In this document: positions 16-39,335 of the stretch, piece after piece
Numbering within the stretch: the stretch's first letter is position 1
Layout: the number at the start of each line of letters is the position of its first letter
From: Desulfuromonadales bacterium
Lineage (GTDB): Bacteria > Desulfobacterota > JAENJC01
Reading direction: 5' to 3'
Assembly: GCA_919902985.1 (NCBI GenBank)
Contig: CAKKSC010000007.1
Span: forward strand, 16,749 to 80,748
Length of the DNA: 64,000 nt
Position numbers and translations under genes: made by a program
The notes under the pieces: generated by a model
The model's input: the letters and a program-made list of their open reading frames with translations, nothing else
Database searches by the model: none
What the model was told of the DNA's origin: nothing

Positions 16-669
16 ATGAGTGCAGCGGCGCCTATTGCATGTCTCACGCAACGTTACATTTCCGCGAAGAGTGAAGTTGCCCATGACTACACAGCCCCAG
101 TCTCTGCTGTTCTTGTCCCGGCATCCGGCAGGGCAAACCTTCTCATGAAAGAATATAAACGTTTCTTTCAGGCAAGACAGCTCCTTGTTTACTCTTCTTT
201 CTTGTTCCTTATATCCTCTTTTATAGGGGCGGGGTATGCTGCATATTCAACAAGTAAAATCGGTGAAATGAAAAAGCGGCTGATCTCTGCGAGGAAGACC
301 CTTCCCGGCATAGAAGGGATTATAACAGCGTACGACAGCAAAAATGAGGAGTTAAACCGCTATGCCCCTTATCTTGCCTTGATAAATAGTTCTGCTTCAA
401 TTCCTGACCTCCAGGGTTTCCTCTATTTGCTCTCAAAGTTGAATATGGACAGTGTTCAACTTGTCTCCATATCCGTGACACCCGGAGAGCGTGTCCTTCA
501 TTCCGAACTGAAAGGGAGCGTAAAATCAGATAGTTATGGGGATGCTCAAAGGGATTACCAACTCCTTGTTGATCGGATAGGCAAATTGAAGGGGGTTGCT
601 GTTACAGATCATAGTCTCGACTTAATAAAGAAGGAGTTCCAGATAAAGGCGGACTTCAATGATTTATGA
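16..669 (+). CDS. pilus assembly inner-membrane protein, PilN/MshI-like (may extend upstream of window)
   Basis: 217 aa. One central TM segment follows a 50-aa cytoplasmic N-terminus, then a periplasmic domain. First gene of a run: PilO-like, PilP-like, secretin, GspE, GspF. No in-frame stop upstream, so it may be 5'-partial. Confidence 0.4.
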   Translation: MSAAAPIACLTQRYISAKSEVAHDYTAPVSAVLVPASGRANLLMKEYKRFFQARQLLVYSSFLFLISSFIGAGYAAYSTSKIGEMKKRLISARKTLPGIEGIITAYDSKNEELNRYAPYLALINSSASIPDLQGFLYLLSKLNMDSVQLVSISVTPGERVLHSELKGSVKSDSYGDAQRDYQLLVDRIGKLKGVAVTDHSLDLIKKEFQIKADFNDL

Positions 670-1207
670 GAGACTGAAAAAAAATCTGATATACTACCTC
701 CTGACCGGTATTGTCCTGGGGGTTGTAGTTATTGCCGTTGTTTTGATCGGGAAATATGAGGAGAATCTCGCCCAAAGCATTGACAGCTTTGAGAGGATAA
801 GGATGAATTCGATAAGGATGTCAAAGGCTACAGAGGAGAAGGAAAGGATAATCAGGGATATAAAAGAGCTGCTCCCTGCCAGGTATCACTCTACAAGTAA
901 TGAAGAGCTTCTTTTATCAGCGATTGATAGTATAAAGGCCAATATTAGAGGATGTGATATAACGATTGCAAACATTGAAAAAAAGGGAGGAGAGTTAACC
1001 CTTCCGGTCAGCATAAGGATATCTTCTGACAGTTACGGTATGCTGGTCGACAGGGTCGGGTTCCTGCAAGGTCTGACTTACCCTCATTTCAGGGTGGAGA
1101 GTATCCTTATCGAGCGGTCGGAAGAAATGGGAGGCCTCATCTGCAAGATTTCCGGGGCATTTACAATCCCTGCCGAAAAGGTCGAGGGTGAGAGACATAA
1201 TGGATAA
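659..1207 (+). CDS. PilO/MshJ-like pilus assembly protein
   Basis: 182 aa with N-terminal TM helix (LIYYLLTGIVLGVVVIAVVLIG) and periplasmic coiled-coil. Position between PilN-like and PilP-like genes. Confidence 0.4.
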   Translation: MIYERLKKNLIYYLLTGIVLGVVVIAVVLIGKYEENLAQSIDSFERIRMNSIRMSKATEEKERIIRDIKELLPARYHSTSNEELLLSAIDSIKANIRGCDITIANIEKKGGELTLPVSIRISSDSYGMLVDRVGFLQGLTYPHFRVESILIERSEEMGGLICKISGAFTIPAEKVEGERHNG

Positions 1208-1688
1208 TATCTTAAAGATCAAGATTGCCTTTCCTTTTTTGTTTGTTGCTATCGGTTTATTCGCTGTAAGGTTTATTGATTACAAGCTGGTGCTCAACCC
1301 TTCCGAGATGCGGATAGCTGATTTTGTCCAGGAGGAGGTCTTGCTTCAGGCAAAGAGAGATCGCCCCGTTATAGCTGCTAATCTGAAGAGTCCCATAGAA
1401 ATGCCGTCTTCACCAGCGAACGGGTTCCCCCCGGTGCCTTTGGATCAGCTTGTTCCGCAGCAGGGTAAGCCAGAGGCTGATTCCCCTGAATTCAAGGTTA
1501 CGATGATCGTCATTGGCGCTAAAACAAGAATGGCGATTCTAAATGGGTCGGTTGTCATGGAGGGAAGTTTTGTTGATAAGGTGGTTGTGAAAAGGATAGA
1601 AAAAGACAGGGTACTGCTTGCCGAGCATGATGTAAAAAGCGGTAAGCTCAGTCCCGTTTGGTTTTCTCTGGAGGGGACAAAGAAATGA
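1188..1688 (+). CDS. PilP/MshK-like pilus assembly protein
   Basis: 166 aa with N-terminal TM. C-terminal beta-domain (RMAILNGSVVMEGSFVDKVVVKRIEKDRVLL) typical of PilP/GspC-type proteins that contact secretins. Overlaps the secretin start by ATGA. Confidence 0.4.
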   Translation: MRDIMDNILKIKIAFPFLFVAIGLFAVRFIDYKLVLNPSEMRIADFVQEEVLLQAKRDRPVIAANLKSPIEMPSSPANGFPPVPLDQLVPQQGKPEADSPEFKVTMIVIGAKTRMAILNGSVVMEGSFVDKVVVKRIEKDRVLLAEHDVKSGKLSPVWFSLEGTKK

Positions 1689-3292
1689 TAAAGAGAAGAT
1701 GGTGTCTGCTGATACCGATAGTTTTGGCTTGCAGCGCATGTGCCACAAGCAGGAAGGCTGAAGGTCCGACGGCTGCAAAAGAGGAGAAATTAAATACTTC
1801 TGCTGACGGTTCCGGGACGGAACAGAGTGGCAGTGAGAAAGTAGCTGGGGAGGTTGCCGTCAATCCGGCTTTATCGGTGCCGGAGTTCGTCCCTCTTTCG
1901 GAGGACCTCTCGCCCTTAAAGACAAGGATAGTTTCAATCTCTGCACGCAGCACTCCACTAAAGGACGTCCTTTTCGTGGTTTCCGAGGCGACAAGACTCA
2001 ATGTTATCATGGATGCAGGGGTGAACCCTGAGCTTCCAGTGACACTTGTGTTGAATAACGTAAGCGCCGAGGATGCCCTGAATATGGTCTCTTCATCCGC
2101 CGGCTATTTTTATTCGATCAAGGGGAATGTGCTTACAGTGAAGGCGCTGGATACTATGATGTTTGAGTTTGGGCAGCCCTCGGTCATACAGGATTATGCC
2201 GTGAATGTTGGCGGAGATATATTGGGTGGGTCTTCAGGGACTACGGGGGGGACCAGCGGCATTAAGGGAAATGTTTCACAGTCGGTGCAATCTGACAAAG
2301 ACGCTACCAAATTATGGGATTCCATAGAGAAGACCATAGGAAGCCTCGTCGGGGCGACGGTATCTTCTTCAACTTCTGCATCCTCTGCTCCTGGTCTTCA
2401 GGCCGCATCTGCAAAAGCCGAACAGCCTCATATAAATGTCAACAGGATGACCGGGACCATAGTTGTTACAGCTGCAAAGAAAGACCTGGAAAAGGTAGAG
2501 GACTATTTGACACGTCTCAAGAAGATCCTTGGCCGTCAGGTGATTATCGAGGCAAGGGTCGTAGAGGTTCAGTTGTCCGATGGGCTCAAATACGGGATTG
2601 ACTGGACTTCCATCAACGCCCTGAATGTGGCCGGAACTACGAGCGTAGGAACCAGTAACTTCACAAATGTATTAGACAAGAGCCTTCCATCTTTTAACAT
2701 CGGGGTCACAAGGAACAACTTCAATGCGGTATTAACTGCCCTTAATCAACAGGGGAACATAAAGACCCTTTCCAACCCAAGGGTAAATATAATGAATGGT
2801 CAGACGGCCCTGTTGAGTGTTGGCCGCAATACTAATTTTATCTCAAAGGTGGAGACTACGACTACACCAGGGAGTTCAGGAACAGCAGCTACAACAACTT
2901 TTTCAGTCACGACCCAGAACGTCCTGTCAGGAGTCATGATCGGCATGGCCCCCATCGTCAACGAAAACGGAGAGATCTCTATGGCCATTACACCTATAAT
3001 CTCTGACCTTGTGAAGCTGGAGGACAGGACTGTCGGGACTGTTGGACAGAACACAATTCAGATATCCCTGCCCACTGTTGATCTGAGGGAGCTGAATACA
3101 ACAGTTAAGATAAAAGACGGTGAAATGGTCATTATCGGAGGGCTCATACAGAACAGAGACAGGACCCAGGACAATCAGGTCCCGTTTCTGGGACGGATAC
3201 CAATTCTTGGATATCTCTTCAAAAGCAGGGAGGTGATCAAGGAGAAGACAGAGCTTGTAATAATGCTTAAACCAACGGTGGTGGTCTTCTGA
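1685..3292 (+). CDS. secretin (MshL/PilQ/GspD family) lipoprotein
   Basis: Signal peptide with lipobox (VLACSAC). C-terminal secretin signature IIGGLIQNRDRTQDNQVPFLGRIPILGYLFKSR...ELVIMLKPTVV. Start moved to ATG 1685, which overlaps the upstream stop. Confidence 0.85.
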   Translation: MIKRRWCLLIPIVLACSACATSRKAEGPTAAKEEKLNTSADGSGTEQSGSEKVAGEVAVNPALSVPEFVPLSEDLSPLKTRIVSISARSTPLKDVLFVVSEATRLNVIMDAGVNPELPVTLVLNNVSAEDALNMVSSSAGYFYSIKGNVLTVKALDTMMFEFGQPSVIQDYAVNVGGDILGGSSGTTGGTSGIKGNVSQSVQSDKDATKLWDSIEKTIGSLVGATVSSSTSASSAPGLQAASAKAEQPHINVNRMTGTIVVTAAKKDLEKVEDYLTRLKKILGRQVIIEARVVEVQLSDGLKYGIDWTSINALNVAGTTSVGTSNFTNVLDKSLPSFNIGVTRNNFNAVLTALNQQGNIKTLSNPRVNIMNGQTALLSVGRNTNFISKVETTTTPGSSGTAATTTFSVTTQNVLSGVMIGMAPIVNENGEISMAITPIISDLVKLEDRTVGTVGQNTIQISLPTVDLRELNTTVKIKDGEMVIIGGLIQNRDRTQDNQVPFLGRIPILGYLFKSREVIKEKTELVIMLKPTVVVF

Positions 3293-3293: not shown

Positions 3294-4943
3294 ATGGCGC
3301 TGAGACTTGGAGAGCTGTTAAAGTCAAAGGGTTTTGTATCCGACGCCCAGTTGAACGTGGCAATGGCACAGCAGACCATAACAGGAGACCTCCTGGGCGA
3401 CACGCTTGTAAAGCTTGCCTTTGTCTCTTCGAGGGAAATGGCCCAGGTACTTGCAGAGCAGGCGGGGACGGAGTTCCTCGACCTCTTTGAATACCCGCCA
3501 ACGGACGAGGCCCTGCGCCTTGTCCCCAGGGACATAGCAGAAAAGACAGGGTTCCTGCCACTCAGTGTTGGGGAAAAGGGGATAGCTATTGGGGTTACAA
3601 ACCTGACTAACATTCTTGCCATAGATACTGCTGCCAAGCTCACCGGTAAGCCTCCCAGGGTTTATATGGTGGATTCAGACAGTTTTTATGCAACCCTTGA
3701 GCGGGCCTATTATTTTCTTGAAAATCCAATACATAAGCGTATAGATGCCATAGTCAACGATATAAAAAACGCAGTCGCCCAGACAGCAGCAACCGTCGCG
3801 TCTCTTTCCGAAATGATAATAATGGACGGCATTAAAAGAAATGCGACAGATATCCATATCATGCCGGCGGCAGAGACAGTCCATATCCTTTACAGGATAG
3901 ACGGAGTGCTTCAACATGCCAGATGCCTTCCAAGAAGCACGCAGAATGGAATTGTGTCGAGGATAAAGATCCTTTCCCAGTTAGACATTGCGGAGCAGAG
4001 GCTCCCCCAGGACGGGTCTTTTACTTTTTCCTTCCTTAGCAGAAAGTATGATATGCGTATCTCTACAATCCCCACAATATATGGAGAGAACGTTGTCATC
4101 AGGGTCCTTGGCGGGTCAGGTCTTCTTCTACGCATATCAAGCCTTGGGTTTGATGAGCAGGACACGGAGAGACTGAAACTCCTGTTCTCAAAGCCTTACG
4201 GGATAATCCTGATTACCGGACCCACCGGTAGCGGTAAGACCACTACCCTTTATGCTGCGTTAAGGGAGATTGACCTTCTTGAAAAGAATGTCATAACTGT
4301 TGAAGACCCGGTTGAATACAAGTTGAGCTTTGTGCGGCAAACTGAAGTAAACGAAAAGGCCGGGTACGATTTTGCCCTGGCAGGCAGGAACTTCATGCGT
4401 CAGGACCCGGACGTGATCCTCCTGGGTGAGATAAGGGACGAGGAGACGTCGAAGATTGCCATACGGTCGTCCATTACGGGACATCTGGTCCTCGCTACAC
4501 TCCATACTAACGATGCCGTCACATCAATACCCCGTCTTGTGGACCTTAATGTTGACAGGTATCTCTTATCTGCTTCCATCCTTGCTGTGGTTGCCCAGAG
4601 GCTGGTGCGAAAGATATGCATGAACTGCAAGGCCGAGGTTGATATAGAAAATGGTTATTTAAGGTCTATCGGACTTCCAGACCTGGAGGGAAAGGTAAAG
4701 AAGGCCCACAAAGGCGCTGGCTGTGTCCTGTGTAGCCATACAGGATATGCAGGCAGGATATCTATAGGAGAAATACTCATTGTTAACGATGAAATAAAGG
4801 AACTGATATATTCAGGGGCTTCCGTGCAGGCAATAAAGGAAGCTGCCTCAAGAAACGGCATGAAGACACTCAGGGATGCGGGTATAAGGAAGGCCATTGC
4901 AGGGATTACGACCTTTGAAGATGTGGTAAGGGTGGCAGGCTGA
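3294..4943 (+). CDS. type IV filament assembly ATPase, GspE/MshE/PilB family
   Basis: Walker A LITGPTGSGKTTTLYAAL. Asp/His boxes and tetracysteine motif (CMNCK...CVLCSHTGYAGR). N-terminal GSPII_E_N domain with an RLGELL...motif that resembles the MshEN c-di-GMP-binding motif. Confidence 0.9.
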   Translation: MALRLGELLKSKGFVSDAQLNVAMAQQTITGDLLGDTLVKLAFVSSREMAQVLAEQAGTEFLDLFEYPPTDEALRLVPRDIAEKTGFLPLSVGEKGIAIGVTNLTNILAIDTAAKLTGKPPRVYMVDSDSFYATLERAYYFLENPIHKRIDAIVNDIKNAVAQTAATVASLSEMIIMDGIKRNATDIHIMPAAETVHILYRIDGVLQHARCLPRSTQNGIVSRIKILSQLDIAEQRLPQDGSFTFSFLSRKYDMRISTIPTIYGENVVIRVLGGSGLLLRISSLGFDEQDTERLKLLFSKPYGIILITGPTGSGKTTTLYAALREIDLLEKNVITVEDPVEYKLSFVRQTEVNEKAGYDFALAGRNFMRQDPDVILLGEIRDEETSKIAIRSSITGHLVLATLHTNDAVTSIPRLVDLNVDRYLLSASILAVVAQRLVRKICMNCKAEVDIENGYLRSIGLPDLEGKVKKAHKGAGCVLCSHTGYAGRISIGEILIVNDEIKELIYSGASVQAIKEAASRNGMKTLRDAGIRKAIAGITTFEDVVRVAG

Positions 4944-6154
4944 TGCCTAATTTCTCATTTAAGGCAGTAGATTCTAACGGTGCTCTGGTAAGAGGCTCCA
5001 TAGAGGCCTCTGATCTGGAAGCGGCCGCCGAAACTATTTTTCACGGCGGGCTTAACGTTCTTGAAATAAGAAAAGCGAACGAACTTCTTGCATCGATCAG
5101 AAAAAGATACCTTGCCAGAACCATAAAGAGAAAGGACATTATTGAGTTTGCAAATAACCTTTCCGTGATGTTAAAGACAGGTGTTCCCATTGTTACAGCC
5201 CTTTACGACATAGCTGAAACAACGGACAACGTTTATCTGAGGCGAAACATCCAGAATATAGGCCACCTGGTTGAATACGGCTCAAGATTTTCTGATGCAG
5301 TGTCCCTTCACAAAGATATATTCCCGGAGGTATTTATTCATCTTGTGGTAGTTGGCGAGGAGACTGGGGGACTGGATAAAAGTCTTGCTGATCTGGCAAT
5401 GCATCTGGGAAAGATGGATGATCTGGCCGAAGCGATAAAGAGCGCCTTGATGTATCCGACCTTTGCCATTATTACCACAACCGGGGCCCTTCTTTTCTGG
5501 CTGAAGTTTGTATTGCCGGGTACTATGAGCATGTTTAAGGGCATGGGTGTGGCCCTTCCCCTTCCAACGAGGATACTCCTTCAGATGAGTAATTTTACCG
5601 AATCCTACTGGTATCTTATGCTTATGACTCCATTTGCCCTTTTTACCCTGGTAATGGCGATGAATAGAAGAGCGGAAACCAGATATTACATTGATGCGGC
5701 CAAGATCAAGATGCCAGTAATGAAGCACATCGTTTACAATAAACTCCTGGCCCTGTATGCTGAGCAGATGCGTATACTCAGCGTCGCAGGAATAACTGTC
5801 ACCAGGTCCATGGACATAGTAGCCAGGATTATAGGGAACGAGGTTTTCAGGTTGGCCATAGAGGGGTCTCTGCAGGACATTTCAGCCGGGAGCGGGATAT
5901 CGGAAGCCATGAAAAAGCGGGAGGTCTTCCCAAAGATGATGACCAGGATGGTCTTTATAGGGGAATCCAGTGGAAGCCTTGATGAGCAGTTTGGCTACCT
6001 CTCTGAGTACTACCTGAAGAGGTTGGACGATGTAGCCGAGAGGATTGGCAAAATGATTGAGCCGATAGTCATAGTCGTCATAGGGTTGATGTTTGTATTT
6101 ATGATTATAGGCCTGCTGTTGCCGATATACGACCTGGTAACGAAGATGAAGTAG
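4943..6154 (+). CDS. type IV filament platform protein, GspF/PilC/MshG family
   Basis: 403 aa. Two GspF repeats and three TM segments. Directly follows the ATPase. Confidence 0.85.
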   Translation: MPNFSFKAVDSNGALVRGSIEASDLEAAAETIFHGGLNVLEIRKANELLASIRKRYLARTIKRKDIIEFANNLSVMLKTGVPIVTALYDIAETTDNVYLRRNIQNIGHLVEYGSRFSDAVSLHKDIFPEVFIHLVVVGEETGGLDKSLADLAMHLGKMDDLAEAIKSALMYPTFAIITTTGALLFWLKFVLPGTMSMFKGMGVALPLPTRILLQMSNFTESYWYLMLMTPFALFTLVMAMNRRAETRYYIDAAKIKMPVMKHIVYNKLLALYAEQMRILSVAGITVTRSMDIVARIIGNEVFRLAIEGSLQDISAGSGISEAMKKREVFPKMMTRMVFIGESSGSLDEQFGYLSEYYLKRLDDVAERIGKMIEPIVIVVIGLMFVFMIIGLLLPIYDLVTKMK

Positions 6155-6260: not shown

Positions 6261-7175
6261 ATGAATATTCTCGAATTCTTCGGATTAAAGGAAGATCCGT
6301 TCAGGCTGACGCCGGATCCTGCCTATTTCTTCCCTTCCACAGGGCACAATGAAGCCTTGCAGTCCCTAAACTACCTGGTGGAGCAGAGAGAAGGATTTGG
6401 TCTCGTCTCCGGGGAGCCTGGAACAGGGAAGACCACCCTTATCAGTGTCTTTATGGAAAGCTGGAAGGACAAGGCGGAGATCGCCATGATACTCACTCCT
6501 CGCTTGTCTCCTGAAGAGTTTCTAATGTCTGTCCTGGACGACTTAAATGTAAAGTCTGAAAAAACAAATAAGAACGATATACTGAAGGCCTTCCGGGACT
6601 TCCTTGTGGACAGGTCTCAGGCCGGCCGGCCTGTGATTATCATCGTTGATGAGGCCCAGAACCTTCCTGATGAGACCCTTGAAGAGCTGAGGCTCCTTTC
6701 CAACCTTGAGACCGATAAAAACAAGCTCCTGCAGATAATCCTGATGGGTCAGCCGGAGATTAACGAAAGGCTGCGGCAAAACAATTTCCGCCAGTTGAAC
6801 CAGAGGATCACAGTCAGAATAAGGCTTTACCCTCTTTCCACTGAGGAGGCCCTGGACTACATTAACTACAGGCTTATCAAGGCAGGAAAGGGGTTTTTAA
6901 GGATGGATGAGAAGCTGAAGAAGCCAATCCACAGACATTCAGCGGGAGTCCCAAGGTTAATCAATATCCTTTCATCGCGGGCAATTATGATTGCCTATCT
7001 TGAGGGCAGCAATGTGGTAAGCAAGAAGCACGTTATGTATGCCGTGAGGCATCTCAGGGAAGACCAGGAAATGCCTGAGAGCAGGTTGTCTCCTTACAAT
7101 GCATTGATATATATGATCCCGGCGGCGATGCTTCTTTTAGTCGGGTATTATGCAATAGTTAGATGGAAAGGATAG
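6261..7175 (+). CDS. ExeA/GspA/MshM-like AAA ATPase
   Basis: N-terminal FFGLKEDPFRLTPDPAYFF motif and Walker A GEPGTGKTT, both characteristic of the ExeA/MshM family. 304 aa, with no peptidoglycan-binding C-terminal extension. Confidence 0.7.
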   Translation: MNILEFFGLKEDPFRLTPDPAYFFPSTGHNEALQSLNYLVEQREGFGLVSGEPGTGKTTLISVFMESWKDKAEIAMILTPRLSPEEFLMSVLDDLNVKSEKTNKNDILKAFRDFLVDRSQAGRPVIIIVDEAQNLPDETLEELRLLSNLETDKNKLLQIILMGQPEINERLRQNNFRQLNQRITVRIRLYPLSTEEALDYINYRLIKAGKGFLRMDEKLKKPIHRHSAGVPRLINILSSRAIMIAYLEGSNVVSKKHVMYAVRHLREDQEMPESRLSPYNALIYMIPAAMLLLVGYYAIVRWKG

Positions 7176-7178: not shown

Positions 7179-8093
7179 TTACGGCATCCGTTCTAATCTC
7201 TGCATACCCAGTTCACCGTTTTTATCCCCCAGCTTCCTGAGTCTCGAGAAATAATCCCTTGCCTGATCGTATCTCTTCTCCCTTTCATAAAGAAGGGCAA
7301 TGTTCAGCAGGGCCGACTGGCTGGTTCCGTCAATGGAGATGGCCTTCAGAAGAGAGTTTTCAGCCTCTATGTTTTCCCCTGTTTTAGCGGATACAATCGC
7401 CGAATTGACCAGGGCAGGGATATAATCCGATCTGATATTCAATGAATTCTTCAGATATCCGGCTGCCTCATCATGTCTGCCCATTTTTATCAGCAGGGCA
7501 GCGATCTTGTTTATAATCCTGTAGTTATCGGGCTCTATCTCAAGGGCCTTATTATACTCCGATGCTGCGCTTAACAGGTCATCACCTTTTTCATACCCCA
7601 CAGCCGCGTATATGTGCTGTTCTTTTGCCCCTGGGATGTGTTCCTCCTGAATGGGCACAGGATGTTGCATTTCTACCGGTATTTCCGGCTTTCGGGATTC
7701 AATGGCTTCTGTCGGATGTTTGGCAGGTAGTGCTTCAGGTTTTGTGAGAACGTAATGGGTCTTATTTTTAGCCGGTGCTGCGACAGGTTCTATTTTAGGC
7801 GTAGTTGTTGGAAGGGTGGGCTCCACCGGCATGGCAGTCTGATTGATGCCGTCCGCCCTGGTTTCCTGTGATGCAGTGACACTGTCTTTATTTAAGGCGT
7901 AGCGATCAGTCAGATAAATCGCAGCCAGGCCGAGGCCTGTAAATATTGAAATAATGGTTGCGAAGAGGAGTATCTTTCTGCGCCTGGATTCCTCCTGCTT
8001 TATGGCCGAGACGCTGCTGCTGAGGCCGGGATGAACATCCCTCTTGGGTTGCTGCTGTTTTACCCTGGATAATATGTCGGATAGTATGCTCAT
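7179..8093 (-). CDS. TPR-repeat membrane protein (MshN/GspB-like candidate)
   Basis: N-terminal cytoplasmic segment, one TM, Pro-rich linker, C-terminal TPR repeats. Sits next to the ExeA-like gene, as in MSHA loci (mshM-mshN), but on the opposite strand. Confidence 0.5.
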   Translation of the reverse strand: MSILSDILSRVKQQQPKRDVHPGLSSSVSAIKQEESRRRKILLFATIISIFTGLGLAAIYLTDRYALNKDSVTASQETRADGINQTAMPVEPTLPTTTPKIEPVAAPAKNKTHYVLTKPEALPAKHPTEAIESRKPEIPVEMQHPVPIQEEHIPGAKEQHIYAAVGYEKGDDLLSAASEYNKALEIEPDNYRIINKIAALLIKMGRHDEAAGYLKNSLNIRSDYIPALVNSAIVSAKTGENIEAENSLLKAISIDGTSQSALLNIALLYEREKRYDQARDYFSRLRKLGDKNGELGMQRLERMP

Positions 8094-8096: not shown

Positions 8097-8600
8097 TTAG
8101 TCGTTGCTGTCCTTTACACTGAACGAAAGGGATGATGTTGTCCGCTCAGGATTGGCGGCTATTTTCTTATATCCGGTCTTTTGCAACTTCGCGTATTTTT
8201 TTAGCTGATTATAAACTTTCCACGAGTACTTTGTCCTCTTTCCCTTTGATACCGCGTTGTAGCAACCCACAGCCTCCCATGTGTATCCGTGTTTTTTAAC
8301 ACATGTATTAAGTATCCTGGCTCCGGCGCTGACATTGTAACATGGATCACTGATAAGCCTTTGCCGGTCAAGCCCCAGCGGCCTGATCCAGGACGAGTTT
8401 ATCTGCATAAGCCCGATATCAAAAGAACCATCGTGGTTTTTGTGTATGACTTTTGTGTTGAAATTTGATTCCGTCTCAGCTATACTCTGCAAAAGCTTGG
8501 AATTAATGCCGTAGATGCCTTCCTGCTGGCTGAAACAAAAGGCCTGTGCAATGGAAGGTAAAGTCAGTAAAATAGTGATAGTCAGCTTCAAGGTATCCAT
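8097..8600 (-). CDS. lytic transglycosylase (SLT domain)
   Basis: Signal peptide. Catalytic ETESNF (ExESxF-like) motif and GLMQI motif. Confidence 0.8.
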   Translation of the reverse strand: MDTLKLTITILLTLPSIAQAFCFSQQEGIYGINSKLLQSIAETESNFNTKVIHKNHDGSFDIGLMQINSSWIRPLGLDRQRLISDPCYNVSAGARILNTCVKKHGYTWEAVGCYNAVSKGKRTKYSWKVYNQLKKYAKLQKTGYKKIAANPERTTSSLSFSVKDSND

Positions 8601-8723
8601 TCAGGCCGTAAGTTTAGCAGATAACAGGCAAGCAAATCAAGACAATTGCAAACGGTCTCTCCTCGCCGAATGTTTCTATCGGGGATAGAGTTTTAAGAAA
8701 ACCGGATTTTTGATTGACCCATT

Positions 8724-8739
8724 TGGAATAACAATTGCA
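8724..8739 (+). promoter_or_regulatory. candidate sigma-54 (-24/-12) promoter TGGAAT-N5-TTGCA upstream of the major pilin gene
   Basis: GG and GC dinucleotides are spaced exactly as in the TGGCAC-N5-TTGCW consensus. It lies about 50 nt upstream of ATG 8792. Type IV pilin genes are commonly RpoN-dependent. Confidence 0.4.
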
Positions 8740-8791
8740 TATTTCTTTTGTAGCATAGCAATTAAATTCACATGTCTGAAAGGAGAGTCAA

Positions 8792-9448
8792 ATGCAGAGA
8801 ATCAGGAATCAGAAAGGTTTTACCCTGATCGAGTTGTCGATAGTCCTTGTGATTATCGGGATCATCCTCGGGGCTGTGCTGAAGGGCCAGGAGTTGATAA
8901 ATAACTCCAAGGCAAAGAGGATACAGAGTGATTTGAAAGGCATAGAAGCAATGATATGGACCTATTATGACCGTAAAGGTAGATTCCCTGGTGACTGTAA
9001 CTTAGGTGGGACTTATACCTATATTCCACCACTTTTGGCCATCGGGACCGCAACGCCTCCCAGCAATAATGCCGTTCCAACAGCAGATTATTGTGCTACG
9101 GCTGCAACTCTTGAAACGATAAATACCTCATTTTCGGATATGCGCGTATCTCGACTTTTTTCAACTTCAACTCCAAACATTATTCTTGCAAAGCATCAGC
9201 AGGGTGATTACTTTAAAATAGGAAGTACCGCGCTAATTGCAGGCGTTTCGTATAATATAATAGTGACTTACGGTTTGCCGGCATGGATGGCAAAGATGTT
9301 AGATGTAGCGATTGATGGTGCGGAAGATGGAACTGCCGGCAGAATTAGAAATTATTCCGCCGCTCCTGCGTCAGGTACTGCATGGCCTTTGGACACGCTC
9401 AATGACCAGATAGTCTCAATGTCATATTTCTTTGATAAGAACCCATAG
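8792..9448 (+). CDS. type IV major pilin / GspG-like pseudopilin (MshA-like candidate)
   Basis: Prepilin leader and N-methylation motif KGFTLIELSIVLVIIGIILGAV. 218 aa. Followed by a strong stem-loop. Confidence 0.8.
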   Translation: MQRIRNQKGFTLIELSIVLVIIGIILGAVLKGQELINNSKAKRIQSDLKGIEAMIWTYYDRKGRFPGDCNLGGTYTYIPPLLAIGTATPPSNNAVPTADYCATAATLETINTSFSDMRVSRLFSTSTPNIILAKHQQGDYFKIGSTALIAGVSYNIIVTYGLPAWMAKMLDVAIDGAEDGTAGRIRNYSAAPASGTAWPLDTLNDQIVSMSYFFDKNP

Positions 9449-9466
9449 ATTAATGCGTGACGATGT

Positions 9467-9497
9467 AATAGAGGCAGGCCCACTGCCTGCCTCTATT
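9467..9497 (+). terminator. perfect 12-bp stem-loop after the pilin gene (no T-run)
   Basis: AATAGAGGCAGG-cccactg-CCTGCCTCTATT, 19 nt downstream of the pilin stop. Read directly from the sequence. Confidence 0.5.
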
Positions 9498-9699
9498 ATC
9501 AGGCAATCCCATTGTTGACTTTATTAGTAGCAATAATCTCGATTGTTTCCGGCTATTACCTTTTAATATCTACATCACCTGATTTGCCTCTTGATTACGT
9601 TACCCGCAGGGCGATGTGGGGAATCATCCTGACCCTCATCGGAGGGATAATGGCTATGATCCATATTTTCAGACGTTCAAAATGATGGAAATAGAGGAT

Positions 9700-10911
9700 A
9701 TGATGCGGCTCTCTACACATCGCAAGTCACTCTTCACCAACAAAAATGGTTTTACCCTCATTGAACTGGCAATGGTCATGATAATTGTCGGTCTCCTTCT
9801 TACTATTGGGATGAGCCTGGTTGGCCCGTTGACAAAGAAGGCCAAGCTTATTGAGGCGAGGGAGGCGGTGAAGGCGGCAAAAGAGGCGGTGCTGGGTTTT
9901 ACTGTAAGGAATAATGGTTTATTGCCCCCACTCTTGCCTAATCCGCCTGGGCCGCTTGGAGCTTCTGGTGCTGCAACAATAGATGCTTGGGGGAAAAATC
10001 TCTTTTATATTAGCGAAACTGAGACTACGCAGGGGACAGGTGTTGATGTTTGCGGCCTTACGACCCCGGTGACTCCTATAACTGTGAGGATGTGTCCTAA
10101 TGTCGCCTGTGCAGCACCAACCAGCACTGTCAGTAATGTTGCCTTAGTGATAATAAGTGGTGCGGATAATTTCAATATACAGACAAACATTAGCGGCGCT
10201 AATAATGTTGATATCTACCCGGTTGATACACCAAACATCGACAATTATACGGTTGCTCCAGATCCGAACAGGCTGGAAAACTATGATGATGTTGTTGTAT
10301 ATGTCTCGCTGGATGAGATCAGGACAGCCAGAGGATGTGCGCAACCGTTGGTCATAACATCGCCGACTACGCTACCGCAGGGTGAAGAGGACTCTTTCTA
10401 TTCGTATTCTCTTCAAGCAATTGGTGGAAGACCTCCGTATACTTGGAGTATAGCCACTCAGCCCGGCAGCGGTCTCACTATGAATGCTTCAGGCTTAATA
10501 TCCGGGACTATTAATGTAAACAATGTGGTTCCCAATACCGGTGAGTTAACGGCATGCAATGGGACGATAAATGTGACGAATGCTACCCTCTCTGATTCTG
10601 GAGGTTCTCCTCCAGTTACGTTCACCGGCATAATCCCTGTGAGACCGAAACCTCTGGCAATATCAAATACCGAGATGCCGACGGCAAAGGTAGGAACGCC
10701 TTACACTGTCACCCTTAATGGATCAGCTGGGAATTCCACGACATACACATGGACACTTACCGCTGGGACCCTACCCACCGGCTTGAATTTGGTTTTAGGC
10801 CAGATAACTGGGACTCCATCGGCTGCCGGGGCACCCAGCTTCACAATCCAGTTGGCAGATCCGTGCCTTACAACAATATCAAAGAGTTTTACGATTACTG
10901 TGAATCCATAA
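9700..10911 (+). CDS. pilin-like protein with C-terminal 'putative Ig' (PF05345-like) domains
   Basis: Prepilin N-terminus NGFTLIELAMVMIIVGLLL. C-terminal repeats of G..Y.Y.L.A.GG.PPYTWS...P.GL.L...G.ISGT. Start taken at ATG 9700 because an AGAGGA RBS precedes it. Confidence 0.65.
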   Translation: MMRLSTHRKSLFTNKNGFTLIELAMVMIIVGLLLTIGMSLVGPLTKKAKLIEAREAVKAAKEAVLGFTVRNNGLLPPLLPNPPGPLGASGAATIDAWGKNLFYISETETTQGTGVDVCGLTTPVTPITVRMCPNVACAAPTSTVSNVALVIISGADNFNIQTNISGANNVDIYPVDTPNIDNYTVAPDPNRLENYDDVVVYVSLDEIRTARGCAQPLVITSPTTLPQGEEDSFYSYSLQAIGGRPPYTWSIATQPGSGLTMNASGLISGTINVNNVVPNTGELTACNGTINVTNATLSDSGGSPPVTFTGIIPVRPKPLAISNTEMPTAKVGTPYTVTLNGSAGNSTTYTWTLTAGTLPTGLNLVLGQITGTPSAAGAPSFTIQLADPCLTTISKSFTITVNP

Positions 10912-11025: not shown

Positions 11026-12834
11026 TTATTGTACTGTCCCCACCGCATCGTCCTTGCACTCAGTCAACCCTTCCGTAGGAGTGACCGTCACTGTCAGAGT
11101 AGATGCATCCACCGTGGTATCCGTGTCGGCGTCAGTCAGCACAAATGAGATTACAAGCGGTCCTTTTGAAAGCCTGTCAGTCAATGTATGGCTTGTAGTC
11201 CCGCTCAGTGTCCCGATGGTTGCAGAAATGCTTACAGTTGTACCGGAGGGCAGCCAGTTCATGTTCTCGTCCCCCAGCGTGAATGTGAAGGCCTGGGAAG
11301 AGCCGTTTGTAATCGTAAACGGCGTGGATGGCGAAATATCGCAATACACCGGATTTCCTGAAAAGACAAGCCTTAAGGATACCCAGATAGTTTTGCTCGT
11401 CAGACAATTGGCTACTGAACAGCCCGGGCCGTCCCAGACGCCGTTTGCCCCATCGTAGACGCCATTTCCATTTGCATCTATAAATTCTTCAAACGGGTCC
11501 GTGCTTGCGGAAACCACACCGTTGCAATTTTTGATTGTGCCGCTGTTCCAGCATCCGTCATCGTTTTTGTCAATAAACGGCTCTCCGGTATCGGTAAATT
11601 TTTCTCCTGCATCGTAGATGCCGTTGCCGTTGATGTCTTCAAAACCCTCTTCCCCTTGAACAGTAGCTAAAATCGTTGCCCATCCGTCCCGCGGATTATA
11701 GGTAGTGGCCGATGGTTCACTGAGGTCGTTAAAAAATGCATTTGAGACTGGGTCACCTGCAACAGCCGGCGTCACATTAACCGGGATTGGCCACTGGGTT
11801 CTGAACTTTACGGTTGTAAGTCCCGATTCATCGGTCACATTGCTGCTGTCAATGGCCCCGGCCTCTGCATAAAAAGAGACCGTAGTGCTTTTAAGCACAT
11901 TGTAGTTTCCAAATCTGTCGGCAATAAAAGCGCTGATGTCGGCCGTTTTGTTAGACCAAACCAGGCCCGGAAGATTAACTTTTGTTGTTGCAATATTAAA
12001 GTGGGATGCAGACGGGAGCCCGCCGCCAATGGAGATAGCGGAAGATGATGCTGAAAATACCTGGCTTCCTGATGTGACAGAAGCGGCAATGGTAACAGTT
12101 CCCGCTACCGATCCGCTGTTAAGGGTCGTTGAGGCATATCCAGATACTGTGGATGCACTGGCAGTAGTTGGAGTTGTATCCGGGTCCCCTATGTATTCCC
12201 CTCCGGCAGACGGGAGTTTGCCGCCGCCAGGACCTACCATGGCGAAACTGACTGATGTCCCGTCGATTGCAGGGTTCCCGTTAATGTCTTTCACGAGGAA
12301 TTTTATAGTGGAGGTGGATGCCTGTCCGCTCCCTTTGATCCCTATCTTCTGTGGGGAGGCTGAAACGAACTCGACGTTCCCAGTGGCGGGGGCTGATATG
12401 ATAATTACCGCAGTATTGCTCAAGGAGCCGACCTTGGCCGTTACGGTTACGGTGCCTGGAACGGTGGATGCAGTAAAGGTCACACTGGCAACGCCATTTG
12501 AGGTAATGGCCTGGGAGGTTATAGTCCCCATGGCGCTGCTGCTCAGGGTGAAAGATACCGCCGTCCCGTCGGCGACATTCCCTCCTGTTGAGGTGGTAAC
12601 AGCGGCCTTGATGCTTGATGTCGTGCCGGTAGTTATAGTGGAAGGGGTTGCAGTCACCTCCATATTGGCGGCGGTTGCCGCCCCGCTTCCTGAGCCCGTT
12701 CCAATGCTTGCGGCCACTCCGCCATTGTTCTCCGGCAGACCGCTCCCGCCGCATGAATAAAGCATCGACAAAAAGACAATCGCCAATAGGGTACTTGCGG
12801 TACGACTAAGTTTCCATGACTCGTTACTCATCAC
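11026..12834 (-). CDS. large surface lipoprotein with bacterial Ig-like (Big) domains and Asp-rich Ca-binding-like repeats
   Basis: Signal peptide plus Cys. Several Big-like repeats (GTVTVTAKVGS; IKFLVKDINGNPAIDGTSVSF). Paralog of 56012..57781. Confidence 0.6.
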   Translation of the reverse strand: MMSNESWKLSRTASTLLAIVFLSMLYSCGGSGLPENNGGVAASIGTGSGSGAATAANMEVTATPSTITTGTTSSIKAAVTTSTGGNVADGTAVSFTLSSSAMGTITSQAITSNGVASVTFTASTVPGTVTVTAKVGSLSNTAVIIISAPATGNVEFVSASPQKIGIKGSGQASTSTIKFLVKDINGNPAIDGTSVSFAMVGPGGGKLPSAGGEYIGDPDTTPTTASASTVSGYASTTLNSGSVAGTVTIAASVTSGSQVFSASSSAISIGGGLPSASHFNIATTKVNLPGLVWSNKTADISAFIADRFGNYNVLKSTTVSFYAEAGAIDSSNVTDESGLTTVKFRTQWPIPVNVTPAVAGDPVSNAFFNDLSEPSATTYNPRDGWATILATVQGEEGFEDINGNGIYDAGEKFTDTGEPFIDKNDDGCWNSGTIKNCNGVVSASTDPFEEFIDANGNGVYDGANGVWDGPGCSVANCLTSKTIWVSLRLVFSGNPVYCDISPSTPFTITNGSSQAFTFTLGDENMNWLPSGTTVSISATIGTLSGTTSHTLTDRLSKGPLVISFVLTDADTDTTVDASTLTVTVTPTEGLTECKDDAVGTVQ

Positions 12835-12844
12835 AAACCCCTGT

Positions 12845-13288
12845 CTAAGAGACGGTTAATGTCGCAGATGCAAAAGCGGAACCTGAGCGGATTTCGAGAT
12901 TGCTCGTAAATGAAGTTCCGCCGCCGGAAAGATAGTCAACCCGCAGGTAATAGACCCCATCGGCATTTGTCGTAGCAATAAATGGCGAGTTTTTTGGTGT
13001 AGAGCCGTCGTAAAGCTGGGCATAGCCCAAAGGATCGGGAATTGCCACAGGCAGGGAGATTGAGACCTCGGCATTCTGAACAGGATTGTCTTTTTCATCC
13101 TTAATGGTGATCGTAAAATATTGAGTATGGGTGGCAGAGGGGTTAGTGTCGCTGACGGACATGCTAAGTGGATTAATAGAAACAACACTTCCAGTTGGCG
13201 CGGTGATTTTATCGCCTGAGCACCCGGCAATCGCCAGGATCAGAAATATTGTAACAAGAAGCTGATACCACGAGTATTCTTTTCTCAT
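12845..13288 (-). CDS. small Ig-like lipoprotein (paralog of 55491..55943)
   Basis: Lipobox LAIAGC. 147 aa. Clearly similar to the 150-aa protein at 55491 (e.g. IRSGSAFASATLTVS versus VRSGAAFISISITLS at the C-termini). Lies upstream of the large Ig-like gene in the same operon orientation. Confidence 0.5.
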   Translation of the reverse strand: MRKEYSWYQLLVTIFLILAIAGCSGDKITAPTGSVVSINPLSMSVSDTNPSATHTQYFTITIKDEKDNPVQNAEVSISLPVAIPDPLGYAQLYDGSTPKNSPFIATTNADGVYYLRVDYLSGGGTSFTSNLEIRSGSAFASATLTVS

Positions 13289-15434: not shown

Positions 15435-15502
15435 TTGTGGCATTGTAATTGCAACCGTTCTATTCATTCTCAAGGCGATATGTTTTTTTGGGTTTTATAA
15501 TA

Positions 15503-17599
15503 ATGAAAAAAAAGCTGATAATGGGTTTGGGCTCTATCCTCCTCCTGTTTGCTGTTGGGGGAGCGATTACGGTCCGGAACCTCGAATCCCTGACAAATAA
15601 TCAAAAAAGCGTCGAGAGGGCGTTGAACGAGCATCATGACTACCTTTGGGCTGTATCAAACCTGCTCACGATCCAAGCCGAGCTTTACAGGTACCAGGCA
15701 GGATATGCCGGAAAACTCTCGGACATTAAAAGTTCTGTCGACAGCCTTGACAATGATGTTTTACATCTTATGACCGGTAACCCTGATGAATCTAAAAAGA
15801 CGTCGTTTAAGGAGGTTCTGTTTCTGCTGGATAGCTATAAGCAAAAGGTGAGCCTGATCCTTATAAACGAGGAGAGGGAGGTTAGATTAAAGCTCGAGAA
15901 AGAGGCCTCGGAGCTTGGGGACAGGCTAAAGGAAAGGCTTTTGGGCCTGTACGCTGTTTCCCAGGCCGAGACGGATCAGCTTACCCCAATAATGGAAAGA
16001 ATAGTTTCTCTGTCCATGATGGTTACCTATCTTACCCTGTTTTTTAGCGGAGCACTAGCAATAGTCGGTTCTGTATGGCTGACAAAGGGGATAACAGGGC
16101 CTGTTAACAGGCTTATTGCTGGTACTAGTGCTATTTCTGCAGGTGACTTCGCTAAGCGCGTTAATATAACGTCTGGCGACGAACTGGGTGTTCTCTCAGA
16201 AAGATTCAACCAGATGGCTGAGGCAATTTCCACGAGGGATGAGGAGGTTAAGTCCACCCTGGAGAAACTGGAATCAACTAATGAGGAACTCCAGGCCTCT
16301 TACAGCCAGATGAAGGCGTTAACGCATGACCTGGAGCATGCAAAGAACGAGCTGGAGGTTGAACAAAGAAGGCTTGTTGAGTCGAGGGAATATCTGCAAA
16401 GCGTCCTCGAAGACTCCCCTGATATAATAGTAACAACCGATACCGAGGGAAACATAGTGGAATTCAACAAAGGCGCAGAGGAGATACTCAGATACACGAG
16501 GAAGGAGCTGATTGGCACTCCGGCAGAGCTTCTGTATCAGGATGAAGCAGAAAGGCGGGATATATTAAAGATCGTTGAGGAAAAGGGGAGAGCAACCAAT
16601 TACGAGGCAAGGCTGAAGACAAAAAATGGAAAGGTCCTGGATGTTAGTCTTACTATTTCCCTGCTGCGGGATGGGATTGGCAATGTTGTCGGAACCGTTG
16701 GCATAAGCAGAGATATAACTGAGATCAAGAAAAAGAGGGAAGAGCTCTTGTCCCTAAACAGGAAACTGCAGGAGACAACTCTGGCCCTTGAGGCAGCAAG
16801 GGCTGATCTCGAAAAGAAGGTCGAAGAAAGAACCAGTGAGCTTCGCGAGGCAAATGAAAAGTTGATAGATTCCAACATAAGGATAAAGGAGGGAGATCGC
16901 CTTAAATCCGAGTTTATGGCCAATATGAGCCATGAACTCCGTACCCCTTTAAATGCCATAATCGGATTTTCTGAGGTGTTGCTGGATGGGATAGACGGGG
17001 AGATAAGCGAAGTTCAGGAGATAGATGTCACCCATATCCACGATAGCGGTCTGCATCTGCTGGGAATAATAAATGACATCCTTGACCTCTGTAAGATAGA
17101 GGCAGGAAAGATGGACCTCGTGAAGGAAGAGGTGGACCTTAATGCCGTTGTCGCTGGTGTTGCCTCTGTAGCAAAGACACTGATTAAAGGAAAGGATATA
17201 ATCCTGAAGACTCAAATAGACGAAAAGTTGCCGACAATAATAGCAGACGGCAAAAAACTGAAGCAGATCATCCTGAACCTTCTCTCCAATGCAGCCAAGT
17301 TTACGGAGGAAGGCGAGATAGCAATAAAGGTCGGCCCAGCGGAGGACGGGTATTTTCTGATTAGCGTCACGGATACCGGGATTGGTATAAAGGAAGAGGA
17401 TATGCCGAAGCTGTTTGAAAAATTCAGGCAGATAGACATGTCGAGCACAAGAAATAAGGGTGGGACCGGCCTTGGCCTGGCTATAACAAAGAAGCTTGTG
17501 GAGATGCACGGAGGAACTATCTCGCTCGACAGCAAGGTTGGAGCGGGGACTACATTTTATGTAAAACTGCCGTTAATTTATAACGTAAGTAATGTATAA
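15503..17599 (+). CDS. sensor histidine kinase (TM-HAMP-PAS-HisKA-HATPase)
   Basis: H-box MSHELRTPLNAIIGFSE, N/G boxes, PAS region, coiled-coil. Start moved to ATG 15503 (MKKKLIMGLG). Confidence 0.85.
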   Translation: MKKKLIMGLGSILLLFAVGGAITVRNLESLTNNQKSVERALNEHHDYLWAVSNLLTIQAELYRYQAGYAGKLSDIKSSVDSLDNDVLHLMTGNPDESKKTSFKEVLFLLDSYKQKVSLILINEEREVRLKLEKEASELGDRLKERLLGLYAVSQAETDQLTPIMERIVSLSMMVTYLTLFFSGALAIVGSVWLTKGITGPVNRLIAGTSAISAGDFAKRVNITSGDELGVLSERFNQMAEAISTRDEEVKSTLEKLESTNEELQASYSQMKALTHDLEHAKNELEVEQRRLVESREYLQSVLEDSPDIIVTTDTEGNIVEFNKGAEEILRYTRKELIGTPAELLYQDEAERRDILKIVEEKGRATNYEARLKTKNGKVLDVSLTISLLRDGIGNVVGTVGISRDITEIKKKREELLSLNRKLQETTLALEAARADLEKKVEERTSELREANEKLIDSNIRIKEGDRLKSEFMANMSHELRTPLNAIIGFSEVLLDGIDGEISEVQEIDVTHIHDSGLHLLGIINDILDLCKIEAGKMDLVKEEVDLNAVVAGVASVAKTLIKGKDIILKTQIDEKLPTIIADGKKLKQIILNLLSNAAKFTEEGEIAIKVGPAEDGYFLISVTDTGIGIKEEDMPKLFEKFRQIDMSSTRNKGGTGLGLAITKKLVEMHGGTISLDSKVGAGTTFYVKLPLIYNVSNV

Positions 17600-17644
17600 T
17601 ACGAACAATAGAAGCATGCGGGAGACTCAGGGGTAAGTGCATTT

Positions 17645-18733
17645 ATGAATATGACCATTCTACAGGTAGAAGACAATGAGGCCAACAGAACCCTGGTCAG
17701 AAGGGTGCTTGAGTCCAGAGGGTATACTGTGTTCGATGCGGAAGACGGGCTCAGCGGGATACAAAGGGCACAGGAGCTGAAGCCAGCCCTCATCCTCATG
17801 GATATAAATATCCCAGGCCTTGACGGTTGTGAGGCTGCAACCAGGATAAGGACCTTAAGGGAGCTCGAAAACACACCTATTGTGGCCATAACTGCCGGCA
17901 CAACAAATGGAGACAGGGAGAGGAGCCTTTCTGCAGGTTGCATAGGGTATATACAGAAGCCCATAGATGTCAAGATATTTCCCGAACAGATAAGGGAGTT
18001 CCTTTCAGGCAGGCAGGAGTCACTTGCCCCTGAGGAGGAAAGGAGCAACCTCAAGGATTACAGTCAAAGGCTGGTGACAAGGTTGCAGGAGAAGGTGATG
18101 GCCCTTGGGGTGAAAACCCTGCAACTTGAAGCCAAGGAAAAGGAGATGGAGGACACATATCTAAACGTCATGGCATCCCTCGCAAGGGCAATGGAAGAGA
18201 AGGACCCTTATACGGCAGGGCATTCGGAGAGGGTGACCTATTTTGCCGTTGAGACAGGAAAGTTCATGGAGCTTGAAAGTGATAGGATCAAGGTACTTAC
18301 AAGGGCGGCGAAGCTTCATGATATTGGGAAGATTGTCGTTGACCTTTCCCATATAAACAAACCAGGCAAGTTAAATGAGGAAGAATGGGAGCAGATGAGG
18401 AGGCACCCGGAGATCGGGGCAAACATACTTAAGCCTCTCGGTTTTTTAAACGAGGAGATAGAGATCATCAGGACCCACCATGAGAGGTGGGACGGCAAGG
18501 GATATCCAAATTGTATAGAGGGGCACAAGCTTAATATTATGAGCTGTATAGTGAGCGTTGCTGACAGTTACGATGCCATGGTCAGCAACAGGCGTTACAG
18601 GGCAATGGTTTCACCAAAAGATGCTATTGCAGAGCTTGAGCGTTGCAAGGGAAGCAAGTATCACCCTGTTATTGTGGATGCCTTTGTTGAGTTTATGAAT
18701 ATAAAGGGATTTGATAACCATAAAAGTCATTGA
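17645..18733 (+). CDS. response regulator receiver fused to HD-GYP c-di-GMP phosphodiesterase domain
   Basis: REC domain (LILMDINIPGLDG) and HD-GYP signature HHERWDGKGYP. Confidence 0.85.
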   Translation: MNMTILQVEDNEANRTLVRRVLESRGYTVFDAEDGLSGIQRAQELKPALILMDINIPGLDGCEAATRIRTLRELENTPIVAITAGTTNGDRERSLSAGCIGYIQKPIDVKIFPEQIREFLSGRQESLAPEEERSNLKDYSQRLVTRLQEKVMALGVKTLQLEAKEKEMEDTYLNVMASLARAMEEKDPYTAGHSERVTYFAVETGKFMELESDRIKVLTRAAKLHDIGKIVVDLSHINKPGKLNEEEWEQMRRHPEIGANILKPLGFLNEEIEIIRTHHERWDGKGYPNCIEGHKLNIMSCIVSVADSYDAMVSNRRYRAMVSPKDAIAELERCKGSKYHPVIVDAFVEFMNIKGFDNHKSH

Positions 18734-36833: not shown

Positions 36834-36853
36834 TTTACAAGACAGGGGCTGCT

Positions 36854-37303: not shown

Positions 37304-37310
37304 GAGAATA

Positions 37311-37372
37311 TAAAATGCAAAATGCAAAATTAAAAACTAAAATTTGCAATTTACAATTTGCATTTGATCAAC
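37311..37372. repeat. AT-rich heptamer-array inverted pair that encodes the PilW leader
   Basis: (ATGCAAA)(ATGCAAA)(ATTAAAA)(ACTAAAA)(TTTGCAA)(TTTACAA)(TTTGCAT). Translated as MQNAKLKTKICNLQFAFDQ. Confidence 0.6.
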
Positions 37373-38364: not shown

Positions 38365-38365
38365 T

Positions 38366-38456
38366 GTATCCCATCCCCACCTTAATCCTCCCCTTGAAGG
38401 GGAGGAAATAAGCATTCTCCCTCTCCCTCAGGGAGAGGGTTGGGGTGAGGGTGGAT
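38366..38456. repeat. poly-C/poly-G tandem hairpin repeat, copy e
   Basis: The first 40 nt match copy c with 2 mismatches. Two hairpins. Lies between pilW and pilX. Confidence 0.7.
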
Positions 38457-38472
38457 TTAGAGAGGTATTGAA

Positions 38473-39319: not shown

Positions 39320-39335
39320 GACAAGGGAGGATGTC

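Follow-up and report, generated by a model that had tools for sequence, protein, structure and literature searches.

A probable modular minor pilin with two predicted Ig-like domains in an MSHA-type pilus locus of a Desulfuromonadales bacterium

What is a protein likely to do that starts as a type IV prepilin and ends in immunoglobulin (Ig)-like domains? The question is raised by a gene at positions 9700..10911 (+ strand) of a 64,000-nucleotide stretch of contig CAKKSC010000007.1 from a Desulfuromonadales bacterium, called the window below. An earlier reading made from the letters alone (the sequence-only reading) had proposed that the product may be an adhesin displayed on a pilus. The protein fits the definition of a modular pilin given by Raynaud et al. 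2021, an N-terminal pilin module joined to a further domain without a specific tie to type IV pilus biology. The results described here favor a modular minor pilin of a mannose-sensitive hemagglutinin (MSHA)-type pilus, probably located at or near the tip, present in low abundance and displaying adhesive Ig domains.

The gene encodes 403 amino acids (aa) plus a stop codon and lies in an open reading frame spanning 9616..10911 (+), with in-frame ATG codons at 9682/9685 and 9700/9703. In an alignment of the window with three related loci, ATG 9700 is the sole start codon kept in all four. The corresponding NCBI model (P0001), annotated as a “putative Ig domain-containing protein” in a Deltaproteobacteria metagenome-assembled genome (MAG), is 100% identical and begins at 9682, giving 409 aa; an identical copy was also found on a groundwater metagenome contig. 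The choice between 9682 and 9700 changes the length of the leader only and leaves the mature protein unaltered. A coding extension to the GTG at 9616 was rejected because the substitutions in that region do not cluster at third codon positions and no start other than ATG 9700 is conserved.

The N-terminus carries a complete prepilin signal. A leader peptide of 17 aa (MMRLSTHRKSLFTNKNG; 9700..9750, +) ends in Gly-1, the leader of the neighboring major pilin being shorter at 9 aa. The motif KNG/FTLIELAMVMIIVG, which starts at 9748 in the motif scan and has its KNG/FTLIE part at 9745-9765, contains Gly-1, Phe+1 and Glu+5, and the N-terminus scores above the cut-offs of both Pfam N_methyl (PF07963; 22.6 bits versus 21.2) and TIGR02532 (25.7 versus 16.3). 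Glu5 is conserved at 90% or more across 49 relatives. The canonical prepilin N-terminus claimed by the sequence-only reading is therefore upheld as a full class III signal, G/F-x-x-x-E. Motif profiles and an AlphaFold model place the hydrophobic alpha1 helix, beginning with FTLIE (Glu5) at the mature N-terminus, at residues 18-70 (9751..9909, +). It is followed by a variable globular pilin head (residues 71-214; 9910..10341, +), a predicted beta-sheet with four conserved Cys that ends in a highly conserved YDDVVVYVSLDEIR..GC junction.

The remainder of the protein is predicted to form two Ig-like domains. Domain 1 (residues 215-318; 10342..10653, +) contains the conserved segment LPQGEEDSFYSYSLQAIGG.PPYTW, and domain 2 (residues 319-403; 10654..10908, +) is a clear Pfam He_PIG domain (PF05345). 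The whole protein matches He_PIG with E=2.2e-14 and 54.1 bits versus a cut-off of 24 over two stretches, the better of which covers residues 320-402. Taken by itself, domain 2 scores 45.7 bits, whereas domain 1 gave no Pfam match at E<=0.1; the sequence similarity between the two domains is marginal (E=0.03). An AlphaFold2 model based on 49 relatives, with a mean predicted local distance difference test (pLDDT) score of 87.7, consists of alpha1 at residues 20-70 (50 residues), a beta-sheet head extending to residue 203, a short helix at 204-211 and all-beta domains at 215-315 and 320-403. The Ig region of the model contains strands only, mostly with pLDDT >90. A Foldseek search of this model against the PDB returned 386 matches at E<=0.001, the top 50 of which are all of tandem Ig/cadherin type. 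The best matches are the cadherin-like (CDHL) modules of SraP from Staphylococcus aureus (4m00 and 4m03; E 1e-8 to 9e-8; template modeling score 0.68, target-normalized, for 4m03), which share only 16-20% sequence identity with the tandem Ig region. SraP is a cell-wall serine-rich repeat adhesin and not a pilin, in which the CDHL modules act chiefly as the stalk of a lectin module.

The predicted structure supports domain 1 as a divergent He_PIG-like beta-sandwich. The Ig-like fold expected from the letters was thus recovered by domain search and by structure prediction (Pfam He_PIG, AlphaFold2 and Foldseek), with two corrections. The C-terminal Ig region comprises two predicted beta-sandwiches over ~189 aa (residues 215-403) and not 250 aa, and of the tandem PF05345-like repeats that had been proposed, domain 2 is clear while domain 1 alone falls below Pfam significance.

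The genes surrounding the modular pilin gene encode the machinery that such a protein would require. An MshL-type secretin is encoded at 1658..3292 (+; TIGR02519, 266 bits versus a cut-off of 250), followed by an extension ATPase with an MshE-type N-terminal domain for binding cyclic di-GMP (c-di-GMP) at 3294..4943 (+; NF053729, 57 bits versus 38, with matches to the PilB/GspE families). Family profiles further identified a platform protein of the GspF/PilC/MshG type (4943..6154, +), an ExeA/MshM-like AAA_22 ATPase (6261..7175, +) and, on the opposite strand, an MshN/PilW-like tetratricopeptide repeat (TPR) protein (7179..8093, -), and a soluble lytic transglycosylase (SLT) domain protein was recognized by Pfam at 8097..8600 (-). 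The probable major pilin gene lies at 8792..9448 (+) and encodes 218 aa with a GFTLIE motif behind a strong Shine-Dalgarno sequence. Three small genes (16-669, 659-1207 and 1188-1688, together 16..1688, +) occupy the MshI/J/K position; this assignment is by position, as no significant family matches were obtained for them, and weak tblastn matches occur in two related loci (L016 and L031). The cluster thus contains both the MshL secretin and the MshE c-di-GMP ATPase by which an MSHA-type system was recognized. It resembles the MSHA locus of Vibrio cholerae in its MshL-type secretin, MshE-type c-di-GMP ATPase, MshG-like platform, MshM-like ATPase and TPR protein. The pilin genes, however, differ. 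The Vibrio locus contains the MshA major pilin, the minor pilins MshB/C/D/O/P (MshD/O/P being homologous to PilI/J/K) and the large non-pilin MshQ, a proposed tip adhesin, whereas the locus in the window has one major and one modular pilin. A six-frame motif scan found only these two prepilin genes in the cluster; a Vibrio-like set of several minor pilins plus MshQ was not found, and no large MshQ- or PilY1-like gene lies beside the two prepilin genes.

The type IV pilin features that were assessed, namely a class III signal, a long alpha1 packed on a predicted beta-sheet and linkage to filament machinery, are all present in the modular pilin. The same machinery could nevertheless be read differently. 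The ATPase, platform and secretin also score against GspE, GspF and GspD, and the pilins give weak N-terminal matches to GspG/GspH, as would be expected if the protein were part of a machine resembling a type II secretion system, either as a pseudopilin or as a periplasmic protein anchored in the inner membrane, and never reached the cell surface. ExeA-like ATPases are likewise known from type II secretion. This explanation is considered very improbable: the secretin passes the MshL equivalog model, the ATPase has the MshE-type c-di-GMP domain, the cluster yielded no homologues of GspC/L/M or GspI/J/K, and the GspG/GspH matches stay far below cut-offs and are confined to the common N-terminal helix. 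Moreover, relatives of the protein carry lectin, PKD and RTX modules, which make most sense outside the cell.

Those relatives, ~45 full-length proteins that are 35-73% identical and 290-700 aa long, were found in MAGs of Thermodesulfovibrio/Nitrospirota, Syntrophaceae and other “Deltaproteobacteria”. A common gene order, MshL-MshE-MshG-MshM, then TPR and SLT genes on the opposite strand, then pilin and modular pilin, was observed in loci L003, L005/6, L008, L009, L010 and L017, with variants elsewhere. In 9 of the 10 Desulfobacterota/Nitrospirota loci scanned, which come from different lineages, the interval of +/-10 kb holds exactly two prepilin genes, the first for a pilin of ~180-220 aa and the second for a modular pilin of 268-593 aa; the tenth (L020) contains the modular pilin only. 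Because the gene belongs to an MSHA-type cluster and the pairing of pilin and modular pilin is conserved in distant MAGs, the reading of the protein as displayed on a pilus is strengthened, and we infer that it is a pilus-displayed adhesin.

The presence of two prepilin genes only, in this locus as in nine of the ten related ones, also suits a different role, that of a single assembly-priming minor pilin comparable to TcpB or CofB, in which the main task of the Ig domains would be to form or stabilize a homo-oligomeric tip, or to bring in a secreted partner, rather than direct contact with the substrate. In type IVb systems that encode a single minor pilin the tip is a homotrimer (PMC13533445), and in CofB the pilin module is followed by beta-rich domains (PMC8179133). 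In addition, distant homologues that consist of the pilin module without an extra domain (210-240 aa when mature and 23-30% identical) occur in MSHA-like clusters of Beta- and Gammaproteobacteria and point to a core role that is independent of Ig domains. CofB of enterotoxigenic Escherichia coli (colonization factor antigen III) and TcpB of V. cholerae (toxin-coregulated pilus) are indeed similar to the protein studied here in being large minor pilins with beta-rich domains and the only minor pilins of their loci. They differ in that they belong to type IVb machinery, not the MSHA type, and form homotrimeric tips in the solved structures, and CofB is an adaptor for a secreted protein. No relationship to either was detected by sequence or fold, TcpB and CofB being absent from both the PDB profile search and the Foldseek matches, and other minor pilins are encoded elsewhere in the window. 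A role chiefly in priming is therefore regarded as possible but doubtful.

The DNA between the two pilin genes bears on the amount of modular pilin that may be produced. The modular pilin gene does follow the major pilin gene, as had been noted from the letters, although not immediately, since a conserved spacer of 251 nt separates them. A conserved 15-bp hairpin at 9465..9499 (+) is terminator- or attenuator-like with a weak U tract; its loop differs between relatives and two of its basal pairs covary. Four double-change pairs were counted in the spacer alignment, two of them in this hairpin, although covariation among four sequences is too thin for claiming structure. The conserved non-coding leader at 9500..9699 (+) shows 75-88% DNA identity to L008, whereas the flanking coding DNA is merely 35-50% identical, so that the spacer is more conserved than its coding neighbors. 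The interval 9465-9699 has a minimum free energy z-score of -3.3, and a hairpin is predicted at its end in which the Shine-Dalgarno region of the modular pilin gene is paired. The spacer may act as an attenuator plus translational leader. A riboswitch or other known RNA in the ~250-nt spacer was rejected, as Rfam returned nothing at gathering thresholds and one chance-level match at E<=1. An exact 20-mer scan of metagenome contigs for further copies of the leader retrieved L090 alone, which lacks cluster homology and was dismissed as a chance match. Upstream of the major pilin gene, direct reading of the sequence by eye located a sigma-54-like -24/-12 element, TGGAAT-N5-TTGCA (8723..8739, +), with correct GG-to-GC spacing and 52-68 nt from the gene. 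Simple scans for sigma-70 promoters and terminators gave no more matches than in shuffled sequence.

These observations are relevant to whether the protein is co-polymerized over the full length of the filament, as a decoration or an alternative structural subunit, yielding Ig-studded pili or a second type of filament from the same machinery. Such a placement would agree with the conservation of Glu5 and of a full-length alpha1, as in subunits of the filament body, and with the position of the extra domains at the C-terminus, which faces outward in pilins; Raynaud et al. (PMC8179133) consider a body location possible with a flexible linker. Among 40 members of the family, the head-Ig junction (YDDVVVYVSLDEIR..GC) and the first half of domain 1 (LPQGEEDSFYSYSLQAIGG.PPYTW) are the best-conserved parts, with a mean pairwise identity of 72%, which suggests a fixed joint and not a flexible linker; elsewhere the values are 63-67% in alpha1, 44% in the head and ~50% in the remaining Ig region. 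The mature protein is also bulky at 386 aa, and a hairpin separates its gene from the preceding one, a typical major pilin gene that has a strong ribosome-binding site and a sigma-54-like promoter. Incorporation throughout the filament is accordingly judged unlikely.

The explanation that we prefer, a low-abundance modular minor pilin at or near the tip, would operate as follows. A prepilin peptidase encoded elsewhere would cleave the leader after Gly17, and the MshE/MshG/MshL machinery would insert the modular pilin into the filament through alpha1. The protein would be made in small amounts, a lower dose than that of the major pilin being expected because its gene lies behind the hairpin and spacer after the strongly expressed major pilin gene. 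Placement at or near the tip is most probable because the protein is bulky and is the only second pilin of the locus, and it matches the published model of modular pilins (PMC8179133). As the only second pilin it may also help to start assembly. The two Ig-like domains would project outward as the adhesive part or as its stalk, allowing attachment to surfaces, polymers or other cells, and the exposed head and Ig modules could be swapped between strains by recombination. The binding role of the Ig domains is inferred from the fold and by analogy, and the lectin, PKD and RTX modules on relatives offer indirect support for adhesion.

Several observations count against this explanation. The conserved Glu5 speaks against a GspK-like terminal cap and permits incorporation along the filament. 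Raynaud et al. 2021 (PMC8179133) assign “no clear function” to He_PIG as an extra pilin domain, and no published study of a He_PIG pilin was found in the literature. The 64-kb window was searched for a PilD-like GxGDxK motif and yielded none, although a prepilin peptidase may be encoded elsewhere. Three further prepilin genes at 36-38 kb belong to a FimU/PilV/PilW/PilX/PilY1 set, which provides other minor pilins in the genome, so that the modular pilin is the sole minor pilin of its locus only. Two loci (L001 and L002) contain homologues without pilus machinery nearby. Finally, the pilin head gave no significant Foldseek match to solved pilins (best E>1). On this last point, the pilin part modeled alone reached a pLDDT of 86.4, its head forms a beta-sheet of 5-6 strands after alpha1 in the AlphaFold2 models (pLDDT 86-88), and its non-significant Foldseek matches are still pilins (Clostridioides difficile PilA1, Thermus PilA4 and GspG); a profile search of PDB sequences recovered only the shared N-terminal helix. 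In the models, the head is a pilin-like fold without a close solved relative.

An exhaustive search was also made with the pilin module without its Ig domains; 960 cluster representatives matched at E<=0.001, of which 331 reached E<=1e-10. Among the 150 best cluster representatives, 130 have a C-terminal extension of at least 60 aa after the module, with a median of 185. The fusions of pilin and Ig domains looked for among relatives following the sequence-only reading were found: a Pfam scan of 100 representatives identified He_PIG in 34, whereas PKD, Big_9, fn3, Y_Y_Y, legume-lectin, ConA-like lectin and RTX repeats are carried by fewer, and many have no recognized domain. The variety of these extensions indicates that the pilin module is a dedicated carrier onto which exposed modules are grafted. 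A broader proposal is that a widespread two-pilin MSHA-like lineage exists in Desulfobacterota, Nitrospirota and related anaerobes, in which a single modular pilin acts both as assembly primer and as exchangeable adhesin, with modules swapped at the conserved alpha1 and junction. We put this forward as a speculation that is more apt to fail than to hold. If true, the modular pilin would replace the four-protein complex of minor pilins and tip adhesin that is usual elsewhere, either PilI/J/K plus PilC/PilY1 or MshD/O/P plus MshQ.

Evidence for exchange of modules was obtained from sliding-window DNA identity among the window, L008 and L009. The closest relative, L009, is ~95% identical to the window as far as ~9880, across the major pilin gene, spacer and alpha1, and then only ~45% identical to the end of the gene; within 9751..9909 the identity is about 80-97% before it drops. 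In the downstream lipoprotein the identity returns to 91%, measured at the protein level. The comparison with L008 gives 91-98% identity in the Ig region (10440-10700) and only 35-50% in the head, while L008 and L009 are 72-84% identical to each other in the head. The proposed breakpoints lie near the end of alpha1 (~9880) and the pilin/Ig junction (~10300-10440), and the three close relatives combine head and Ig region differently. Such a mosaic would be expected of a diversifying protein that is exposed at the surface, with recombination at conserved segments reshuffling its parts.

With respect to known systems, the domain architecture is already catalogued. IPR012902-PF05345, with one to four copies of the latter (x1 to x4), is among the commonest architectures listed for modular pilins in a survey of InterPro by Raynaud et al. 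(2021 PNAS, Dataset S1; PMC8179133). The listed proteins share with the window's protein a domain grammar in which an N-terminal prepilin methylation motif precedes one He_PIG domain or several. That listing is a database survey in which no member, context or pilus type was analyzed, whereas the present protein belongs to an MSHA-type two-pilin locus and one of its Ig domains is divergent from the Pfam model. PilB (pilin plus vWA) and PilC (pilin plus ConA-like lectin) of Streptococcus sanguinis similarly have a functional C-terminal module grafted onto a pilin. They are minor pilins, proposed to be exposed at the tip, with a direct role in adhesion, and some relatives of the window's module also have lectins. 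PilB and PilC differ in belonging to a monoderm pilus and in having other effector folds, a small pilin module and a short loop, and no sequence relationship is detectable beyond alpha1. The protein described here comes from a diderm with MSHA machinery and has a pilin module of ~200 aa and tandem Ig/cadherin-like domains.

The modular-pilin design and this architecture are thus known, and the protein itself is in NCBI; in these respects the analysis mainly confirms and refines existing annotation. Three additions, all of them computational, are made here: an MSHA-like locus with two pilins that is conserved, a pilin module that behaves as a carrier, and head and Ig modules that are exchanged in a mosaic fashion. 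Modular pilins are a simple route by which plain filaments gain binding functions, and the few that have been studied come mostly from pathogens. The same design is found here in uncultured groundwater and sediment anaerobes, where one conserved carrier pilin is combined with many different Ig, lectin and RTX modules and is encoded next to an MSHA-type machine that responds to c-di-GMP. It could explain how these anaerobes attach to minerals, polymers or syntrophic partners, and if the two-pilin layout is complete, it would offer a minimal system for studying the start of pilus assembly.

Additional features were observed in the related loci. The standalone homologues of the pilin module, found in loci L034-L089 (e.g. 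L043, 9986-10723), come from Duganella, Thiobacillus, Gallionella, Massilia and others. The gene for the homologue lies ~3.5 kb downstream from that for the platform protein; its neighbors are genes without family matches and one for an ABC-2-type membrane protein. Identification of the L043 homologue as a named Msh minor pilin was rejected, as NCBIfam and Pfam gave generic prepilin matches only. In L005/L006, a Wzy_C/O-antigen-ligase-like membrane protein is encoded between the major and modular pilins (8195-9943); it resembles pilin O-glycosylation genes of the TfpO/PglL type and is absent from the window. Longer members of the family (P0004, P0015, P0021 and P0024, and the pilins of L012, L017 and L018) end in a Cys-containing module of ~85 aa, often behind Ser/Thr/Gly-rich linkers, with the pattern YRVWN...DF.vDG.C...NN.EIT...C...Y..A...D...C.VNF.GTDR. 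This module, which the window's protein lacks, matched nothing in Pfam at E<=1 and is possibly a terminal domain that has yet to be described.

Other genes of the window were also surveyed. The convergent genes next to the modular pilin, at 11026-13288 (-), encode two lipoproteins that the sequence-only reading had described as Ig-like. The description holds for the 602-aa protein, which has Big_1/Invasin_D3 domains, and less so for the 147-aa protein, whose Big_1 match is weak (E=0.0033) and below the Pfam cut-off. Of the related loci, only that of the close relative L009 keeps the two beside the pilin (91% and 86% identity); a functional tie to the pilin was therefore rejected, and they are treated as neighbors only. 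The interval 36348-45383 holds the separate type IVa minor pilin set, which encodes GspH/FimU-like, PilV-like, PilW and PilX proteins and a PilY1 of 1733 aa with a MAM domain. The 247-aa lipoprotein encoded after this set, at the end of the interval (44640-45383), carries a He_PIG domain of its own (42.8 bits), so that He_PIG occurs twice beside pilus tip genes in this genome. A few kilobases downstream of the pilus cluster, at 15449-18733, are genes for a 716-aa sensor histidine kinase and a 362-aa protein whose sequence looks like that of a response regulator with an HD-GYP-like domain; this pair may be relevant because the extension ATPase has an MshE-type c-di-GMP-binding domain.

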